Assembly (NCBI GenBank): GCA_038128225.1
Contig: JAYPJF010000001.1
Location: 168,092 to 232,091 of the forward strand
From: a bacterium
Lineage (GTDB): Bacteria > Patescibacteriota > Minisyncoccia > Phycocordibacterales > UBA2100
Reading direction: 5' to 3'
DNA: 64,000 nucleotides
A model generated the notes under the pieces. The model made no database searches. It saw only the letters and a program-made list of their open reading frames with translations, and was not told the DNA's origin. Of this stretch, positions 2,435 through 20,893 are shown piece by piece (the stretch's first letter is position 1; the number at the start of each line of letters is the position of its first letter). The position numbers were made by a program, and so were the translations under genes.

Positions 2435-3343
2435 ATGAGTGTATACCTACACGCAGCTAAGGTTTTTGTTTTTTCATTACTCATCGCCGGGAGTATGTTT
2501 CTTTTTGCTTTTGCAGAAGAGACAACCACTTCTGTAGACGCAACTGTCGAAGTTGGTGTTTCAACCCAAAAACCAGGCCCAAATCAGAAACTTAAAGAAC
2601 AGCGCCAAAACGGCGTCAAAACTTTCCAAGAAGAGAAGAAAAATTTTATTCAAAACCGCCAAGAAGATGTCCAGAAAGCAATGGAAATACGCATGGGCAT
2701 CAAAGAAGACCGGCAAGAATTTCGTCAAGGCGTTATCGACGAGTCGAAAACGATGCGGGGAGAGACCAAAGCAAAACTACAAAACGCCTCAACGACCGAA
2801 GAAAAGAAAGGTATTCTGAAAGCAGCACAAGAAAAACGCCAAGAATTCCGGCAAGATGTTGCTGGTGAACGTAAGGCGCTTGCTGAAGATTTTAAAGGGC
2901 GCCGCGAGGAAATTCGAGAAGCTACAAAACAGCGAGTTGTTGAACGCATGGGCCTTGTTATACAGCGCCTTACTAATTCGCTTGAACGATTCGATCAAAT
3001 CATCGCACGAATGCAGTCGCGCCTTGATAAACTCGTGTCGCAAGGCGTGAGCACCACCAACGCGCAGGCAGCTCTCGACACCGCGAAAGGTAATGTGACA
3101 ACGGCAAAAAATGCAGTCGCGAGTGCAAAAAGTGCAATTGAGGCCGCGGCTACAGCCGAAGATCCAAAGTCTGAAGTAGAAAAAGTCCGCACTGCCATAA
3201 AAACTGCAACCGAGGTTATCAAAAGCACTCACCAAGCAATTAGAAAAGCGGTCGAAGAAATCAAAAAAATAGCTCCGAAAAATACAACCGTATCGGCAAC
3301 TACGTCCGTTGAAAGTACGAGCACTGTCGAATCAAATAATTAA
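2435..3343 (+). CDS. Hypothetical secreted coiled-coil protein with an N-terminal signal peptide and repeated Q.EFRQ motifs
   Basis: Hydrophobic N-terminus FVFSLLIAGSMFLFAFA, followed by a K/E/Q-rich helical region. Confidence 0.5.
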   Translation: MSVYLHAAKVFVFSLLIAGSMFLFAFAEETTTSVDATVEVGVSTQKPGPNQKLKEQRQNGVKTFQEEKKNFIQNRQEDVQKAMEIRMGIKEDRQEFRQGVIDESKTMRGETKAKLQNASTTEEKKGILKAAQEKRQEFRQDVAGERKALAEDFKGRREEIREATKQRVVERMGLVIQRLTNSLERFDQIIARMQSRLDKLVSQGVSTTNAQAALDTAKGNVTTAKNAVASAKSAIEAAATAEDPKSEVEKVRTAIKTATEVIKSTHQAIRKAVEEIKKIAPKNTTVSATTSVESTSTVESNN

Positions 3344-3359
3344 TAACTCATAGCTATAT

Positions 3360-3728
3360 ATGGATCAACAATCGCCTATTACAACACCGTCATCAAATCA
3401 AAACCCACTACCCCCCCAGGAACCTGCTGAGCACCACGGCTCTTTAGGTCCTATCGTTGGTGTTGTTGTAATCATTGCACTCCTCATGTTTGGGGGCCTC
3501 TACTTCTGGGGTGCACAACTCAATAATGACAATGACGATCAAGTTCCCTACATTCCTGAAGAATCAGCTGCGCCACCGATAAACGATAACTCTGACCTGT
3601 CTTCTTCTGATGGTGTCGCAGCAATTGATTCTGACATAGCGGCAACCGACATGGCTGAACTCGAAGCTTCACTTGATGCTGATTTAAAAAGTATCGAAAG
3701 TGACCTTGGCGAACTCGACACCCTCTAA
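3360..3728 (+). CDS. Hypothetical small membrane protein with one TM helix and an acidic C-terminus
   Basis: TM segment GPIVGVVVIIALLMFGGLYFWGA. A terminator hairpin follows the stop. Confidence 0.45.
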   Translation: MDQQSPITTPSSNQNPLPPQEPAEHHGSLGPIVGVVVIIALLMFGGLYFWGAQLNNDNDDQVPYIPEESAAPPINDNSDLSSSDGVAAIDSDIAATDMAELEASLDADLKSIESDLGELDTL

Positions 3729-3786: not shown

Positions 3787-4851
3787 ATGTCAGCAACAAT
3801 TAGCTCAAAACAAGCCTTCCCGGAAACTTCAGAGGTTGAAATAAAAGCCTCTCTGTCACCGGAAACACTTGTGTCGTTTCGTGCTAAAGCAATCAAAAAA
3901 TTACAAGAAAAAGTTTCAATTGATGGGTTCCGAAAAGGCCATGTGCCTGAAGATCTTGTGGAGCGTCACGTGGGTGCGGATACCCTTCTCGAAGAAGCTG
4001 CCGATTTGGCGCTTAAGTCGGAAGTGCCGCTCATTCTTGCCCAGGAAAACGTACTCGGTATTGCAACACCGCGAATCACCGTTACCAAACTCGCGCTCGG
4101 TAACCCGCTCGAGTTCACTGTGCGCATTGAAGTGTACCCGACAGTTACTCTCCCTGACTATAAAAAAATCGCCGCGCAGCTCAACAAAAAACGCGAGCTC
4201 GTACACGTGGCCGACGCAGAAGTTGCCGAAGTACTTGTTCGCCTGAGACGTGAGCGCGCAAAAATTGACCGGATCGAAAAAGGCGACAGTGCAGAAGATG
4301 CAGCAAAAAATTCTGTTGAACTCCCAGAGAAAGACCTCCCAGAACTGGACGACGCGTTCGTCAAAGGTCTCGGATATGAAACTCTTGCCGACTTCACTGA
4401 AAAACTCAAGGAAAACATCCAAAAAGACAAAGAGGCGCAGGCACACGAAAAACATCGGTTACTCATCATCGAAACAGTCAGTGCAGAAACTAAAACTGCC
4501 ATTCCTCATACGCTCATCGAGCATGAGGTGCATAAGATGGAAGCGCAATTTGAGTCCGACCTGAAGCAGGCTGGCATGTCATTCGATCAATATTTAACAC
4601 ACATTAAAAAAACGCACGAAGATCTGCATAAAGAATGGCACGAACCCGCTGAAAAACGAGCGAAAGTAGAGCTCATCCTCGCTGAGATCGCACAGAAGGA
4701 GAATTTAAAAGCGAGCGAAGACGAAGTGCGAAAACATGTGGCGCACACACTCAAAACACACAAGGATGCGCCTGAGGAACGCGTATACCAATATTACAAC
4801 CACGTTTTGCGTAATGATGCTGTGCTCCAATTTTTAGAAGAGCAAAAATAG
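3787..4851 (+). CDS. tig: Trigger factor (short form)
   Basis: GFRKGHVP motif and ribosome-binding N-domain features. It sits immediately upstream of clpP in the classic tig-clpP arrangement. Confidence 0.75.
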
Positions 4852-7597: not shown

Positions 7598-7614
7598 GGT
7601 TTCTGTACAATCAA

Positions 7615-7639
7615 AAGACCGCCTCTGGGCGGTTTTTTG
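7615..7639 (+). terminator. Rho-independent terminator after hup (gaccgcc-tctg-ggcggt + TTTTTT)
   Basis: Stem plus T-run seen in the sequence. Confidence 0.65.
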
Positions 7640-7762
7640 ATGCGCGGCTATATGTGCACGCCGCTTGCTAGCTATAAGTTATTCCAAGGTGCTACCATAG
7701 ACATAGTTGCAAAGGGCAATTACTAGGCTGTCTTCCCAAGAGAAGACAGACAATGTATCACT

Positions 7763-7861
7763 ATGGATAACCAAGAATGCGTGTGCCAGGGTGCAGCCCA
7801 GTGTCCAGAAAATTGCACCTGTGATTGTCATAAGGGCGCAGAAAGCGAAACAAGTGCATAG
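7763..7861 (+). CDS. Putative 32-aa cysteine-rich micro-protein (MDNQECVCQGAAQCPENCTCDCHKGAESETSA), metallothionein-like
   Basis: Six Cys plus one His in 32 aa. A strong hairpin at 7872..7904 follows the stop immediately. The ORF is below the track size cutoff and was found by reading the sequence. Confidence 0.3.
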   Translation: MDNQECVCQGAAQCPENCTCDCHKGAESETSA

Positions 7862-7871
7862 CTTCAACAAC

Positions 7872-7904
7872 AAACACAAACCGCCTTTGAGGCGGTTTGT
7901 GTTT
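7872..7904 (+). terminator. Strong hairpin (aaacacaaaccgcc-tttga-ggcggtttgtgttt), a probable intrinsic terminator for the micro-ORF
   Basis: Perfect 14-bp stem ending in a T-rich 3' arm. Confidence 0.45.
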
Positions 7905-8078
7905 GGGAGAACTGCGCAGTAAAAGGTACGGCGCCCGTCCATTCATATATATCCGTTGTTTTGTGCAGAATACTAGAAATAGCTCTAATTCCCCACTGCG
8001 CCGACACGATCAAATTATTCTTTGCCGAACTAATCCAAGGGTTCGCGAAATGAGTGTAACTTTGTTCGTTGAATTGCA

Positions 8079-8110
8079 AAAGAAAAGCCGCTCCCGTTGC
8101 CAGGAGCGGC
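8079..8110 (-). terminator. Terminator hairpin (gccgctcc...ggagcggc) with a T-run on the minus strand, downstream of the 8122..8832 gene
   Basis: Stem seen in the sequence. On the minus strand it is followed by TTTTCTTTT. Confidence 0.5.
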
Positions 8111-8121
8111 CAGTTTAGCGA

Positions 8122-8832
8122 TTAGGCTTGGTGCGGCCAGTGCTCCGTCCCATCGGAGTCAATCCAGTGATATGACTCCGGGTCGTCCGGCGACCCGCAG
8201 GTCACGGTGGCATACCTGCCGCCGTGCTCTGCGGCGAGAAAAATCTTCGTCGCTGCGGCGCGAGCTGCCTTCTCCTGCGGAACACGGAAGCGGAAGGACC
8301 GATTCTTTTCGCCGTTCCGCCCCGAATGGGCGAAAAGGACGAGGTCACTGACATCAGCGCCTTCCTTCGTATCCCACTCGGCATGAAAGTACGCGGCATC
8401 CGCCACCATCTCCTGTTTTTCCGCGAGAAGGTTGTTGACGGCGCGGCTGGCCACCTCGCAGTCAACCTCCTCCCAAAGTTCTTCCCACAAGGTGGACATC
8501 ACTTCGGGAGAGTCCTGGTAGGTCCGGTTGTGCACACGCCGTTCGACGAAGTTGCCGCGCTTGACGAGCACGGCGATCGTCACAGCTTCCAGAAGTGGCA
8601 GTGGGATACAGAGCGAGCTTTCACCTGCCCGCACCACCACCAGGTCGAAATAAGACTCAGACGAGGAGCCCCCATCCGGGTCCTGTGTTTCGATCTCGAC
8701 CTCAAGCCCCTCAGGCTTGTTGTCGAGATACTCCTGAAGCACCACCGCGAGCGCGGTGTTGGCGAGAGAGTAGTCCCCGCCGCTGACCTGCTTTGCGCGG
8801 TTGCCGATCTGGACAATTTTGTGTAGGTTCAT
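8122..8832 (-). CDS. Hypothetical protein of 236 aa. The gene is GC-rich (about 60% against a background of about 48%) and is likely horizontally acquired.
   Basis: Intact ORF with a strong GGAGGAGGG Shine-Dalgarno site, its own consensus promoter and its own terminator. I do not recognise a family for it. Confidence 0.55.
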   Translation of the reverse strand: MNLHKIVQIGNRAKQVSGGDYSLANTALAVVLQEYLDNKPEGLEVEIETQDPDGGSSSESYFDLVVVRAGESSLCIPLPLLEAVTIAVLVKRGNFVERRVHNRTYQDSPEVMSTLWEELWEEVDCEVASRAVNNLLAEKQEMVADAAYFHAEWDTKEGADVSDLVLFAHSGRNGEKNRSFRFRVPQEKAARAAATKIFLAAEHGGRYATVTCGSPDDPESYHWIDSDGTEHWPHQA

Positions 8833-9006
8833 ATCGCCCTCCTCCGGGCTGGTTCCGCACTTGGCGAAGCCGTGAGTTCCACATCAGTTCTCTCTAATGT
8901 GGGGAAGGCCGCATCGTTGCGGCTCCAGCTTTGGCACTAGCGAAGTACCGCCGAAACTGGAGCCGCAGAGAATCTTAATCTCAAAAATCTTCTCTAATCT
9001 GATTGT

Positions 9007-9035
9007 AATATACAATGTTCTATGTTTATTGTCAA
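9007..9035 (-). promoter_or_regulatory. Near-consensus sigma70 promoter (TTGACA-17-TATATT) driving the 8122..8832 gene through a leader of about 170 nt
   Basis: Read on the minus strand: TTGACAataaacatagaacattgTATATT. Confidence 0.45.
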
Positions 9036-9165
9036 TATAAAACTGCGGACTAAACCAAAGGTGTTATAAAATCTTGAGTATCGCATGCCCAAACGTTCTT
9101 TTTTCCCAAAAGATTTAGAGTGCGCGCAGGACAGCGGCGAGCGCCCATTTACAAATCCTTGATTG

Positions 9166-9184
9166 GTGCGGGATGCGGGAATCG
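9166..9184 (-). repeat. 19-nt direct repeat of the tRNA-Gly 3' end (gtgcgggatgcgggaatcg), att-like
   Basis: Identical to 9312..9330 inside tRNA-Gly. No complete tRNA can be folded around this copy. Confidence 0.5.
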
Positions 9185-9312
9185 GTCACGAGTTTCGCTC
9201 TGCGAACCCTCGACCCCGCCTCAGCCCGGCTCGGGCTTCCGGCTTTCGATTCCCACCCTCCGTTACAAAACAACAGTCATCGTACGCTCACGCGTACTCT
9301 TCGTTTGTTTTG

Positions 9313-9383
9313 TGCGGGATGCGGGAATCGAACCCGCGACCTCAGTTTGGAAAACTGATATTTTACCATTAAACTAATCCCGC
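9313..9383 (-). tRNA. tRNA-Gly (anticodon TCC)
   Basis: Reverse complement reads GCGGGATTAGTTTAATGGTAAAATATCAGTTTTCCAAACTGAGGTCGCGGGTTCGATTCCCGCATCCCGCA. It folds as a cloverleaf with anticodon loop TTTCCAA and no encoded CCA. Confidence 0.75.
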
Positions 9384-9459
9384 ATAGGTTTGCACATACT
9401 ACCAAAATACTCCCAAACACAAAGCCCCGCTTTAGCGGGGCTTTGTTCAGTCCACTTCT

Positions 9460-9603
9460 CTATTCATCACTTCCACCCATATCAACCGTCTCCTCATCGC
9501 TCTCTTCTTCCCCCGCCTGGTCACATGTACCACCGCACGCAGAGCACACATCATCATGAGTGCATTCTGATGCATCGCATGAACACTTTCGTTGTTCGTC
9601 CAT
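9460..9603 (-). CDS. Putative 47-aa cysteine-rich acidic micro-protein (MDEQRKCSCDASECTHDDVCSACGGTCDQAGEEESDEETVDMGGSDE)
   Basis: Six Cys arranged CxC-x4-C-x5-C-x2-C-x3-C. On the minus strand a terminator hairpin (aaagccccgc-taaa-gcggggcttt, plus 9421..9444) follows the stop immediately. Confidence 0.3.
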   Translation of the reverse strand: MDEQRKCSCDASECTHDDVCSACGGTCDQAGEEESDEETVDMGGSDE

Positions 9604-9619
9604 ATTTAAAAATTAACTA

Positions 9620-9757
9620 TTATTGTTCCTCTCCTACCTCTCCCTCTTCTGCAAGATTCCCCTCCTCTGGCTCGCCTTCTCCCTCGAGATCCTCACCCAC
9701 CTCAGGCTCACCCTCTCCTTCTGTATCCGCGAGCCCAAAAACCTCATCATCAACCAT
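9620..9757 (-). CDS. Possible 45-aa highly acidic peptide (MVDDEVFGLADTEGEGEPEVGEDLEGEGEPEEGNLAEEGEVGEEQ) upstream of the Cys-rich micro-ORF
   Basis: Intact ORF on the minus strand. Its strong purine bias may instead reflect an RNA element. Confidence 0.2.
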   Translation of the reverse strand: MVDDEVFGLADTEGEGEPEVGEDLEGEGEPEEGNLAEEGEVGEEQ

Positions 9758-9864
9758 ACTTCTCAAAAATAACTTTTAAAACAACGGCATTGTATGATGG
9801 CCGTTCAGGCCGTCAAGACTTGTATTGGGGATTGAAAGTGGTCTTGTGTGAGCGTATAGTCACC

Positions 9865-19912: not shown

Positions 19913-20893
19913 TCAGCTTCGCTTTCTTCCATGGAACTTTTTATGTACTTCTTTAAGGTGTTTGTCGGTTACGTGCGTATAAATCTGTGTTGTATTAATG
20001 CTTGCATGCCCCAAAAGAGCCTGAACACTACGAATATCTGCTCCATTCTGCAGCAGATCGGTAGCAAATGAATGCCTTACAATGTGCGGGGTCACTTTTT
20101 TAGTGATACCAGCCTTAATAGCGTTGCGTTTCACCATGCGCTCAATCGAGCGAACAGTGAGGCGGCTCGCTTTGCCGCGTGCACCCTTGCCATAGTGTAC
20201 AAAAAGCGCCCCGTCGAGATCTTTGCGCGCATCGAGATACATTTTTATAGCCTTCTTAGCCTCGGGTGAAAAAAATACCACGCGCACCTTCTCGCCTTTG
20301 CCGCGGACAGAAAGCTCATCCCGACTTAAATCAACGTCTCGATCAAGTGAGGCAAGTTCTGAGACACGTAGCCCTGTTGAAAAGAGTGTCTCAAGAATCG
20401 CTCGGTCACGCAATCCTTGGAGGCTTTGGAGGTCAGGGGCAGCAAGCAACCTGCCTAATTCTGCCTCAGAAATAAGATCAATCTCACGATCGGGTAATTT
20501 TGCGAGCTCAATTGTTTCCGGCTCAAGTGTTTTGACCCGACATTTACGCAAATACTTCAAAAACGCCCGGAGCGCGATGAGGTAGTAATTCTGAGTTCGC
20601 CTCTTCATTGATCCGCTCACTCCCTCCTGTCGATTGAGCCAGAGCCTGAATTCACGCACAGCGGTCTGTGTTATGTCTTCAGGCTTTTTTGCCTTAGTTT
20701 GAGAGAAAAAACGGGTGAGATACCGATCGTAGTTTTCGACCGTTTTCACCGAACGCCCGCGCTCGATCTCTACATACTCAAGAAATTGCGCCTTGTATTC
20801 TTGGAGATCTGTCGCCACAGGATTATTGTACCTGAGACAACCGGTCAAAGAAGGGCTTGCAATAAGCGAAAGTGCGTGGTACTCTCTCTCCAT
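19913..20893 (-). CDS. xerC: Tyrosine site-specific recombinase XerC/XerD. An alternative GTG start at 20818 is possible.
   Basis: C-terminal catalytic motifs HSFATDLLQNGADIRSVQALLGHASINTTQIYTHV. The ATG at 20893 overlaps the rpsO start codon. Confidence 0.8.
   Translation of the reverse strand: MEREYHALSLIASPSLTGCLRYNNPVATDLQEYKAQFLEYVEIERGRSVKTVENYDRYLTRFFSQTKAKKPEDITQTAVREFRLWLNRQEGVSGSMKRRTQNYYLIALRAFLKYLRKCRVKTLEPETIELAKLPDREIDLISEAELGRLLAAPDLQSLQGLRDRAILETLFSTGLRVSELASLDRDVDLSRDELSVRGKGEKVRVVFFSPEAKKAIKMYLDARKDLDGALFVHYGKGARGKASRLTVRSIERMVKRNAIKAGITKKVTPHIVRHSFATDLLQNGADIRSVQALLGHASINTTQIYTHVTDKHLKEVHKKFHGRKRS

Follow-up and report, generated by a model that had tools for sequence, protein, structure and literature searches.

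The 64-kb window considered here, meaning the whole stretch of DNA that was analysed, raises the question of why the 3′-terminal 19 nt of its tRNA-Gly(TCC) gene recur a short distance downstream, and whether this duplication marks an integrase-mediated island carrying the neighbouring GC-rich gene, as the first-pass annotation had proposed. The features concerned are the following.

9313..9383, minus strand: tRNA-Gly(TCC), intact, CCA not encoded (ARAGORN, 9312..9383; Rfam RF00005, 74 bits)
9312..9330, minus strand: proximal 19-nt tail copy (C56..A73 plus C74), within the functional tRNA, exact repeat
9184..9166, minus strand: distal 19-nt tail copy, exact repeat, then CA, thus reading ACCA (9164..9184)
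8122..8832, minus strand: GC-rich ORFan, 236 aa, outside the repeat-bounded segment
9035..9007, minus strand: ORFan promoter, TTGACA-17-TATATT
Within 8833..9035, minus strand: ORFan 5′ leader, 174 nt, strongly folded
8111..8086, minus strand: ORFan intrinsic terminator, 11-bp stem

The repeat itself is exactly as first described: GTGCGGGATGCGGGAATCG is found without mismatch at 9166..9184 and 9312..9330, and these are its only two matches in the window with up to 3 mismatches allowed (0.01 matches expected from shuffles; two matches in 0 of 100 shuffles). On the tRNA strand it spans T-loop C56 through discriminator A73 plus one C, and the two copies are separated by 127 bp of non-coding DNA without an ORF. 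The distal copy runs on as ...GCA-CCA (CCA at 9166..9164) and the tRNA's own copy as ...GCA-CAAAA. Neither ARAGORN nor the Rfam covariance models find a second tRNA or a tmRNA around the distal copy (9166..9311), so the earlier statement that no cloverleaf can be drawn there stands, as does the exclusion of a bona fide second tRNA; it needs the amendment that the distal copy pairs with an internal complementary arm in a predicted tRNA-like helix of acceptor/T type.

The description of the GC-rich gene was equally accurate. Its GC content is about 0.60 against about 0.48, its GC3 is 0.74 against 0.45 ± 0.05 across the window's 38 other ORFs (z = 5.7), and its own consensus promoter, strong Shine-Dalgarno site (GGAGG) and terminator were all located. 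Taken together with the repeat, these features could describe a decayed island in which the 19-mers are attL and attR, the gene is cargo and the integrase has been lost. Such a direct repeat from T-loop to 3′ end is the classic identity block of tyrosine integrases, the ORFan is strongly foreign in composition and has a moron-like build (promoter, gene, terminator), and one related locus (L083) does carry a 4.3-kb island between tRNA-Pro and a 16-nt tail copy. Geometry, however, largely refutes this reading and makes it very unlikely: the gene lies beyond the distal repeat, outside the 127-bp segment that the repeats enclose. No third copy of the 19-mer delimits a larger island either, the best match in 7598..9165 having 7-8 mismatches, which is chance level. 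As first noted, no integrase lies between the repeats or beside them; the sole tyrosine recombinase of the window is a Xer-like gene about 10 kb away, at 19916..20893, and only 2 of 120 element-bearing metagenome loci contain a tyrosine-recombinase homologue. Moreover, the 127 bp between the repeats belong to a conserved family, members of which sit cargo-free at many tRNAs. The HU-to-tRNA gap at element-only sites is 200-274 bp, and in four of them (L022, L042, L048, L070) it is about 200-240 bp, the size of the element alone, so the same kind of element is found without extra DNA. The first-pass interpretation is thus partly supported: the repeat does mark an insertion at a tRNA 3′ end, as the comparison of L073 with L062 illustrates for another family member, but the inserted unit is the 127-bp element.

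The ORFan has no match in Pfam, PADLOC or PHROG, and tblastn returned no match in 50,697 phage records. Word-index searches recover only the protein itself and an alignment query adds two relatives; residues 1-138 form an N-terminal domain of an uncharacterised family, modelling was poor for the C-terminal part, and the single-sequence structure model (pLDDT 35) is of no use. Relatives with enlarged HU-to-tRNA gaps hold no cargo homologous to it but unrelated genes, some with N-termini that, read by eye, we take to be housekeeping-like (RarA-like, TrmB-like). The gene is probably a separate, compositionally foreign horizontal acquisition, and its arrival has no demonstrable link to the 19-nt repeat.

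What the repeats enclose is a subtype-A copy of a family of non-coding structured elements, with the following parts.

9166..9311, minus strand: whole element, subtype-A copy (covariance model, 94.9 bits)
9267..9311, minus strand: 5′ module (folds and alignment with other copies), with the trailer AAAACAAACGAAG, conserved as AAAAYAAMGAG in other copies
9311..9305 with 9273..9267, minus strand: outer stem of the 5′ module, enclosing H1
9297..9292 with 9287..9282, minus strand: hairpin H1 (fold)
9248..9262, minus strand: internal 5′ arm CGGAGGGUGGGAAUC (MFE and centroid folds; P1 covariation in the family)
The arm with distal tail 9183..9169, minus strand: closing helix P1, predicted tRNA-like T/acceptor helix
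9218..9247, minus strand: junction GAAA and helix P2 (fold; family comparison)
9243..9241 with 9220..9218, minus strand: P2a, GCC/GGC (fold)
9237..9232 with 9228..9223, minus strand: P2b hairpin (fold)
9184..9215, minus strand: helix P3 (GGUCGAGGGUUCGC / GCGAAACUCGUGACC), one G.U pair, its last C being C56 of the distal tail

Read along the tRNA strand, the order is tRNA, trailer, H1, arm (..GGAAUCG, complementary to the T-loop and the 3′ strand of the T-stem), three-way junction (GAAA, P2, GG, P3) and second tail copy, which across the family runs from G57 or C56 to A73 plus C. The predicted fold of the window copy has a stability z of −4.2, and the unpaired conserved GGAAG of its P2 region corresponds to the family consensus GGAGC.

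Family members are 130-190-nt non-coding structured elements lying directly 3′ of tRNA genes and on the same strand, behind at least 20 tRNA species in Candidatus Kaiserbacteria and metagenome contigs; a copy usually ends in an exact 16-19-nt duplicate of its own tRNA's tail, from T-loop to discriminator plus C. Among 208 tRNAs in Kaiserbacteria loci, 29 have a same-strand copy of their own tail (≥12 nt) within 450 nt downstream, against 0 of 208 for a control with tRNA 5′ heads in the same loci, with repeat periods concentrated in the range 142-186 nt. Spacer homology extends over the tRNA-Gly(TCC), Gly(GCC), Pro and Arg genes. Scanning with a covariance model recovered about 31 copies from 1.3 Mb of relatives, one from the window and 69 more from metagenome loci, where the search pattern fixed several bases whose invariance is therefore by construction. 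Of these 69, 37 immediately follow a tRNA on the same strand, with 22 anticodon species and 12 amino acids represented, and about 22 of the 37 have the cognate 16-19-nt tail. About 160 copies have been gathered in all, and the family is defined well enough for a covariance model. Rfam 15 gives no match on the window element at E ≤ 10 and none at E ≤ 1 in three further loci (L042, L074, L027), its models including group I and II introns, tmRNA, Y RNA, known ribozymes and riboswitches; motif scans and covariance-model scoring of IMG/VR viral contigs returned no genuine copy, and a full-text literature search no description of the family.

The common fold is a three-way junction with strong compensatory covariation, in which the copied tail is the pairing partner of the internal arm. 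The share of paired cells in subtype B is 95.5%, compared with 80% for shuffles and about 40% for slid controls, and 18 of 32 pairs show compensatory changes, a count matched by 0 of 500 shuffles. Among 60 subtype-A copies, chosen for a pairable P2a, every one of the four Watson-Crick types occurs at the middle P2a pair; P3 pairs 8 and 9 of this subtype are canonical at frequencies of 0.97 and 0.92 (0.59 and 0.62 when shuffled), and the sense strand is stabler than the antisense strand in 59 of the 60. Compensatory changes in excess of the controls support a conserved secondary structure, as in structured non-coding RNA families. Distal tails that have drifted from the tRNA remain paired with the arm, as judged from MFE folds. 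In many copies the arm, and sometimes an acceptor-like arm too, matches the cognate tail well, which simple target duplication does not account for.

The elements also behave as insertions. The filled site L073 differs from the empty site L062 of the same family by exactly one element plus one tail copy, the native 3′ flank following the distal copy; the collections contain no close relative of the window organism (RNase Y at most 75% identical) and hence no empty counterpart of its own locus. The organism also occurs in samples such as SRR26337526 and DRR404984; constant contig breaks lie at 9195 and 9308. The distribution is patchy, with sister genomes holding different subtypes at the same tRNA. 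Nested or tandem, decaying remnants are found in L013 and L015, and L255 has two copies side by side. Two different cognate tails on one contig, L248, follow arm-plus-core stretches of about 97 nt that are 100% identical, the junction falling directly after GAAUC and the arms being non-adapted. The trailer past the proximal tail is conserved among copies and the sequence past the distal tail is not. CCA follows the distal tail in 5 element copies and the proximal tail in 2, and 14 of 61 tRNA-Gly genes of relatives encode it. A decayed tandem tRNA duplicate was considered as origin and rejected, the 5′ modules being unlike the cognate tRNA bodies (z about 0).

Some of these observations would also suit a resident functional RNA, that is, an old, vertically inherited tRNA-like ncRNA gene or 3′ trailer module, co-transcribed and not mobile, which might serve as a signal for processing or punctuation, as a decoy for acceptor/T-arm-recognising enzymes or toxins, or as a CCA-tailed minihelix. 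Selection or gene conversion would then keep the tail equal to the tRNA, and patchiness would reflect repeated precise loss between the tails. Consistent with this, structural covariation and strand asymmetry are strong, and the elements are always co-oriented with and directly behind tRNAs, in L198 even forming the spacers between four consecutive ones. For both 5′ modules and cores, the best-matching copies come from the same tRNA locus in other, distant genomes and not from within the genome, a clustering by tRNA locus that long vertical inheritance of a functional RNA fits at least as well as mobility does. Tails also follow tRNA changes between lineages (tRNA-Pro tails, L018 versus L073), and arm and distal tail co-vary once diverged from the tRNA. 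We nevertheless regard a purely resident RNA as rather unlikely: no more than about 14% of Kaiserbacteria tRNAs, and 1 of the 4 in the window, carry an element, sister genomes differ in subtype at the same tRNA, the L248 cores are identical in spite of different tails and non-adapted arms, tandem and nested copies decay, and past the distal tail there is plain, unconserved native tRNA flank. The 'empty' sites could themselves be secondary deletions between two tails.

A further possibility is that the tRNA body is joined to the distal, CCA-bearing tail as an alternative 3′ exon, a 146-nt intervening sequence being removed as a T-loop intron. The window copy, with CCA encoded at the distal tail and absent at the proximal one, would suit this, and a global fold allows base pairing between the distal tail and the 5′ strand of the tRNA. 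A rare variant, tRNA-Ser(UGA) in L248, hints at such a T-loop intron: it holds the three-way junction inside its T-loop without an intact copy and is recognised as a tRNA only after in silico removal of the insert. Patescibacteria are moreover rich in tRNA introns (PMC13011429). However, 59 of 60 subtype-A copies have a complete tRNA upstream, which makes splicing unnecessary, and in silico removal yields a tRNA in only 1 of 60, so a general T-loop intron was rejected. Most distal tails also lack a following CCA. Group I and group II intron models have no match, and judging from the exact repeat, the junction would be unable to provide the 5′-exon U and terminal intron G of the group I rule. 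We hold this explanation to be highly improbable.

On balance, the segment 9166..9311 on the minus strand is probably, though by no means certainly, best explained as one copy of a widespread non-coding structured element inserted 3′ of Patescibacteria tRNA genes. Pairing between its arm and the copied tail closes the junction into a long, tRNA-like acceptor/T-type helix; on this reading the 19-nt 'att-like' repeat is the element's own target duplication or recombination identity block. We infer that the distal tail is the native tRNA 3′ end with its flank, displaced by the insertion. The insertion would thus move the CCA-bearing end distally and leave the tRNA with the proximal copy, dependent on the CCA-adding enzyme, which the window encodes. 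The element would be co-transcribed with the tRNA and fold as RNA, a preference over folded single-stranded DNA that strand asymmetry and co-orientation suggest. Spread to new tRNA genes may involve duplication of positions 57-74 in a reaction at the conserved T-loop, with a putative enzyme acting in trans and arm-to-T-loop pairing possibly as the guide; our searches found neither an autonomous parent element nor a mobilising enzyme. Once in place, copies would be inherited vertically over long periods, with selection acting on the fold, and would often be lost through recombination between the two tails.

More tentatively, and with doubts that outweigh our confidence, we speculate that this is a new class of tRNA-gene-associated structured RNA in which the three-way junction and the T-loop-complementary arm may be mechanistically active. 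It might be a guide or ribozyme-like module directing its own insertion at the universally conserved T-loop, the tRNA tail being regenerated; or it might be a mimic of the cognate acceptor/T-arm, processed and CCA-tailed, serving the cell as decoy, processing signal or aminoacyl carrier. Should the element be a resident RNA, Patescibacteria would possess, for individual tRNAs, encoded 'shadow' mimics of the acceptor/T-arm, with a bearing on tRNA processing, quality control or defence in episymbionts. If it is mobile, it represents a new harmless way of targeting tRNA genes and points to a trans-acting enzyme or an RNA-guided step.

Known systems share parts of this picture. Folded single-strand recombination sites such as integron attC and CTX-phi attP (XerCD) also conserve structure above sequence, rebuild a duplex target half-site from a hairpin and carry no recombinase; unlike attC, the present element has no integron integrase or attC core motifs. 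Patescibacteria tRNA introns likewise are structured RNAs at conserved tRNA-gene sites, patchy, without homing enzymes and with internal sequence complementary to the flanking exon, but they are self-splicing and interrupt the gene at the anticodon loop, whereas the element follows an intact tRNA, duplicates its tail, is far smaller and has no match among intron models. With mascRNA, viral tRNA-like structures, bacterial YrlA and the tRNA-like domain of tmRNA it shares an acceptor/T-type helix whose 5′ and 3′ strands lie far apart and whose end is the discriminator, followed by CCA in the window copy; it differs in lacking a D/T-loop elbow, in having a three-way junction of about 90 nt in place of the T-loop, in mimicking whichever tRNA is upstream and in showing no Rfam tmRNA or Y RNA match. 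Small non-autonomous repeats (MITEs, Correia, RUP, ERIC) and CIMEs, the cis-mobilisable remnants of integrative elements, resemble it in being small, multi-copy, non-coding, patchy and foldable when transcribed. Unlike in MITEs, its ends (AAAACAAACG... and ...CUCGUGAC) are not terminal inverted repeats, its duplication is 17-19 nt of tRNA tail instead of 2-10, its target is strictly the tRNA 3′ end, and its copies are highly diverged with compensatory pairs kept, where typical MITE copies are near-identical.

In footprint the element resembles the insertions made by tyrosine integrases, which place islands and prophages at the block from T-loop to 3′ end (T-loop sublocation class) and for which tRNA 3′ ends are the classic landing sites. 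Those insertions likewise leave a tail repeat starting at the T-loop, regenerate the tRNA, displace the native 3′ end distally and accrete in tandem at the same tRNA. The present element differs from them in being 130-190 nt long, non-coding and free of any integrase inside or beside it, in lying behind at least 20 tRNA species, each with the cognate tail, and in an interior that is a conserved three-way junction under base-pairing selection. In reduced Patescibacteria genomes an island-type footprint is thus made by a tiny non-coding element with a covarying fold, and in annotation such tail duplications should not be taken for island boundaries.

The tRNA-Gly(TCC) gene, called by both ARAGORN and Rfam, carries a 3′ tail that is duplicated nearby. 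Two exact matches to the 19-mer GTGCGGGATGCGGGAATCG, at 9166..9184 and 9312..9330, form the pair reported in the first-pass annotation; allowing up to 3 mismatches adds no further site in the window, and shuffling gives a chance expectation of 0.01 matches. In tRNA orientation, the repeat begins at T-loop position C56, takes in the 3′ strands of the T-stem and the acceptor stem, and ends with the discriminator A73 plus one C. The proximal tail, the tRNA's own 3′ end, reads ...GCACAAAA, and the distal tail reads ...GCACCA, so CCA is encoded there. ARAGORN and the Rfam models call neither a tRNA nor a tmRNA at the distal repeat, in agreement with the earlier statement that no second tRNA surrounds it. 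The 19-nt repeat is a duplication accompanying a small structured non-coding element; the native 3′ end of the tRNA has most likely been displaced and is now the distal copy, the one with CCA.

Along the tRNA strand, the order is tRNA, trailer AAAAYAAMGAG, hairpin H1, an internal arm ending in GGAAUCG, the junction GAAA, helix P2, GG, helix P3 and tail. P2 comprises a 3-bp GNC/GNC helix, an unpaired GGAGC, a variable hairpin and CGA, and P3 is a long rod with a variable tip. When the arm pairs with the distal tail (P1), the T/acceptor-like helix so formed closes a three-way junction. Two subtypes, A and B, were distinguished; the window copy is of subtype A, with a folding stability of z = -4.2 and these features:

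9313..9383, minus strand, tRNA-Gly(TCC)
9311..9305 with 9273..9267, minus strand, outer stem (fold)
9297..9292 with 9287..9282, minus strand, H1 (fold)
9262..9248 with 9183..9169, minus strand, P1 (fold)
9243..9218, minus strand, P2 (fold)
9215..9184, minus strand, P3 (fold)

For subtype B, 95.5% of cells are paired, against 80% in column shuffles and 32-47% with slid partners, and both-side changes are found at 18 of 32 pairs, equalled by 0 of 500 shuffles. Considering subtype A (n = 60), the middle pair of P2a takes all four Watson-Crick types among copies regex-selected for a pairable P2a, P3 pairs 8 and 9 are canonical at 0.97 and 0.92 (shuffled, 0.59 and 0.62) and P1 positions 7-9 stand above shuffles; in the metagenome copies of this subtype, any base that the search pattern fixed is necessarily invariant. 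Tip lengths range from 9 to 39 nt in P2b and from 32 to 61 nt in P3 and all fold, folding is more stable for the sense than for the antisense strand in 59 of the 60 subtype A copies, and a G.U pair is present in P3 of all 8 Kaiserbacteria subtype A copies. Within drifted distal tails, the altered base is usually still arm-paired (37 positions, from MFE folds). These comparisons provide evidence of selection on the element fold.

Searching relatives for own-tail copies of at least 12 nt, on the same strand and at most 450 nt downstream, returned 29 of 208 tRNAs, and the control with tRNA 5′ heads returned 0 of 208. Repeat periods are mostly 142-186 nt; the duplication was found at tRNA-Gly(TCC), Gly(GCC), Pro(TGG/CGG) and Arg(TCG), with homologous spacers across tRNA-Gly(TCC), Gly(GCC), Pro and Arg. 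A covariance model trained on 18 spacers detects ~31 copies in 1.3 Mb of relatives' DNA and exactly one in the window (9162..9309, 94.9 bits). Scanning metagenome contigs by the subtype A motif gave 120 loci, and the model, applied to the first 80, scored 69 copies, 37 of them directly behind a same-strand tRNA. The metagenome hosts are tRNA Pro, Trp, Gly, Lys, Met, Glu, Ser, Ala, Cys, Leu, Thr and Arg (five anticodons). Approximately 22 of the 37 tRNA-adjacent copies end in a 16-19-nt copy of the cognate tail, and in one metagenome locus (L198, 7053..8372) four consecutive tRNAs are each followed by one element, the elements being the spacers. No Rfam match was obtained for the window copy or for those of three relatives (L042, L074, L027), and no published description of the element was found in the literature searched.

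Stand-alone three-way junctions were also seen in relatives (L056 9624..9709, L054 9994..10079, L058 15646..15732, L033 15719..15869 and L053 15932..16087). They are closed by a helix of two arbitrary complementary sequences, not by a tRNA tail, and the junction in L056 adjoins no tRNA.

Comparison of a filled and an empty site shows that the flank following the distal tail in relative L073 is the same as the immediate post-tRNA flank in relative L062. Conservation between copies extends beyond the proximal tail but not beyond the distal one. A CCA is found behind the distal tail in 5 copies, as against 2 for the proximal tail, and 14 of 61 tRNA-Gly genes of relatives encode it; a native origin of the distal end would predict this. 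When mapped on the RNase Y tree, occupancy is patchy, and one tRNA can bear different subtypes in sister genomes (A in L022, B in L042). Decayed older copies are nested distal to a newer one in two relatives (L013 18413..18647, L015 17046..17274), and two adjacent copies lie behind one tRNA in metagenome locus L255 (1199..1701). Another metagenome locus, L248, harbors two copies with ~97 nt of identical arm and core and different cognate tails, the split falling right after GAAUC. One places a three-way junction inside the T-loop of tRNA-Ser(UGA) (3300..3560, minus strand), with no intact copy upstream, and ARAGORN calls this tRNA only once the insert is removed in silico; the other (4288..4445), 0.9 kb away, sits behind an intact tRNA-Ser(CGA) with its own tail. 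The 5′ modules and cores are usually nearest to same-tRNA copies of other genomes, not to same-genome copies, and some copies have perfectly matched acceptor-like arms, both of which count against simple mobility. Such a pattern agrees with prolonged vertical inheritance under selection for structure, accompanied by exchange between copies through recombination and by frequent loss.

Logan contigs matching this region (L001-L004, L008, L009) break at the same two places in every sample, left-side contigs ending at 9195 and right-side contigs starting at 9308. The branching 30-mers at these breaks are the tail plus 11 nt of element, and TTTT plus the tail plus 7 nt of tRNA. This would point to another near-identical copy elsewhere in the genome, to variable copy number, or to strains differing at the element boundaries.

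The window was assigned to Candidatus Kaiserbacteria (Patescibacteria) through RNase Y relatives (top match 75% identical), among which the gene order RNase Y, HU, tRNA-Gly(TCC), trypsin-like protease, then tRNA-Pro, tRNA-Gly(GCC) and tRNA-Arg is conserved. The HU-to-tRNA gap spans 55-274 bp in 38 of the 50 relatives having both genes and 1715 bp in the window. Enlarged gaps in 12 relatives contain unrelated genes, some with what by eye would be housekeeping-like N-termini (RarA-like, TrmB-like), and none resembling the GC-rich window gene at 8122..8832 (minus strand, 236 aa; hereafter the ORFan). Orientation of tRNA-Gly(TCC) relative to HU varies across the relatives (L010-L089), being plus in roughly a third and minus in the others, and the neighboring tRNA-Pro, Gly(GCC) and Arg genes are likewise flipped, which implies that small inversions affecting single tRNA genes are frequent in the clade.

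The first-pass annotation had read the repeat and the ORFan together as the footprint of an inserted island. The repeat does mark an insertion, but the repeats enclose only 127 bp and the ORFan cassette (about 8080..9040) lies outside them, beyond the distal copy; in relatives, sites that contain the element alone show that it requires no cargo. Tail-flanked gene islands are present in the clade: in relative L083 (17137..21504), 4.3 kb separate tRNA-Pro(TGG) from an exact 16-nt copy of its tail. From the translations, this island may be toxin-antitoxin/defence-like, with putative MazG-like, 674-aa DUF2075-resembling (with S24 peptidase), HTH (with ImmA/IrrE-like domain) and RelE/HigB-like ORFs and no evident recombinase-like one. 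The ORFan could in principle have arrived in this way, though we found no evidence that it did. Its cassette has no further tail copy around it and no integrase. One recombinase was seen in the 64-kb window:

19916..20893, minus strand, Xer-like tyrosine recombinase of 326 aa, beside rpsO

This enzyme is a candidate for tRNA-tail recombination in trans; linkage between such a gene and the elements is absent in the metagenome loci.

The foreign composition attributed to the ORFan holds (GC ~0.60 versus ~0.48), with GC3 at 0.74 versus 0.45 ± 0.05 in 38 other window ORFs (z = 5.7), and its own near-consensus promoter, Shine-Dalgarno site and terminator were all recovered. It has no match in Pfam, PADLOC or PHROG. 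An exhaustive HMMER search returned 123 relatives (E <= 1e-3) of its N-terminal 135 residues, mostly 140-250 aa, devoid of Pfam domains, and the family keeps D63, P77, K91 and R103 invariant; the sole long relative, P0004 (2462 aa), matches residues 129-188 only, via fibronectin-type-III-like repeats. Two relatives belong to series of small hypothetical genes with a shared orientation, and one of the two adjoins a Kyano_Gp96-family gene; this context looks phage-like. Residues 1-138 are predicted confidently (pLDDT above 90) in the AlphaFold model, built from 40 sequences, which has no significant match in PDB or BFVD. This N-terminal domain (1-138) defines an uncharacterised protein family, and we read the ORFan as a horizontally acquired moron-like gene.

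Its 174-nt leader (8833..9006, minus strand) forms two very stable hairpins (-74 kcal/mol, z = -5.5), one of them near-perfect (~48 nt, roughly 8915..8968), and has no Rfam match. Three terminator-bounded micro-ORFs lie to either side of the tRNA locus:

7763..7861, plus strand, micro-ORF
9460..9603, minus strand, micro-ORF called as a gene on Logan contigs
9620..9766, minus strand, micro-ORF called as a gene on Logan contigs

Two of the products are Cys-rich (32 aa with CxC...CPENCTCDC; 47 aa with CSC...CSACGGTC) and one is extremely acidic (48 aa); none has a Pfam match or a tblastn match in relatives.

Among known systems, the nearest kind is site-specific integration at the T-loop-to-3′-end block of tRNA genes, from which the element differs in having neither an integrase nor cargo between the repeats. 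It is small, non-coding and multi-copy like MITEs, although it lacks the features that define them. Similarly, without the defining features of Patescibacteria tRNA introns (PMC13011429), it shares with them a structured nature, a patchy distribution and a lodging in conserved tRNA sites.
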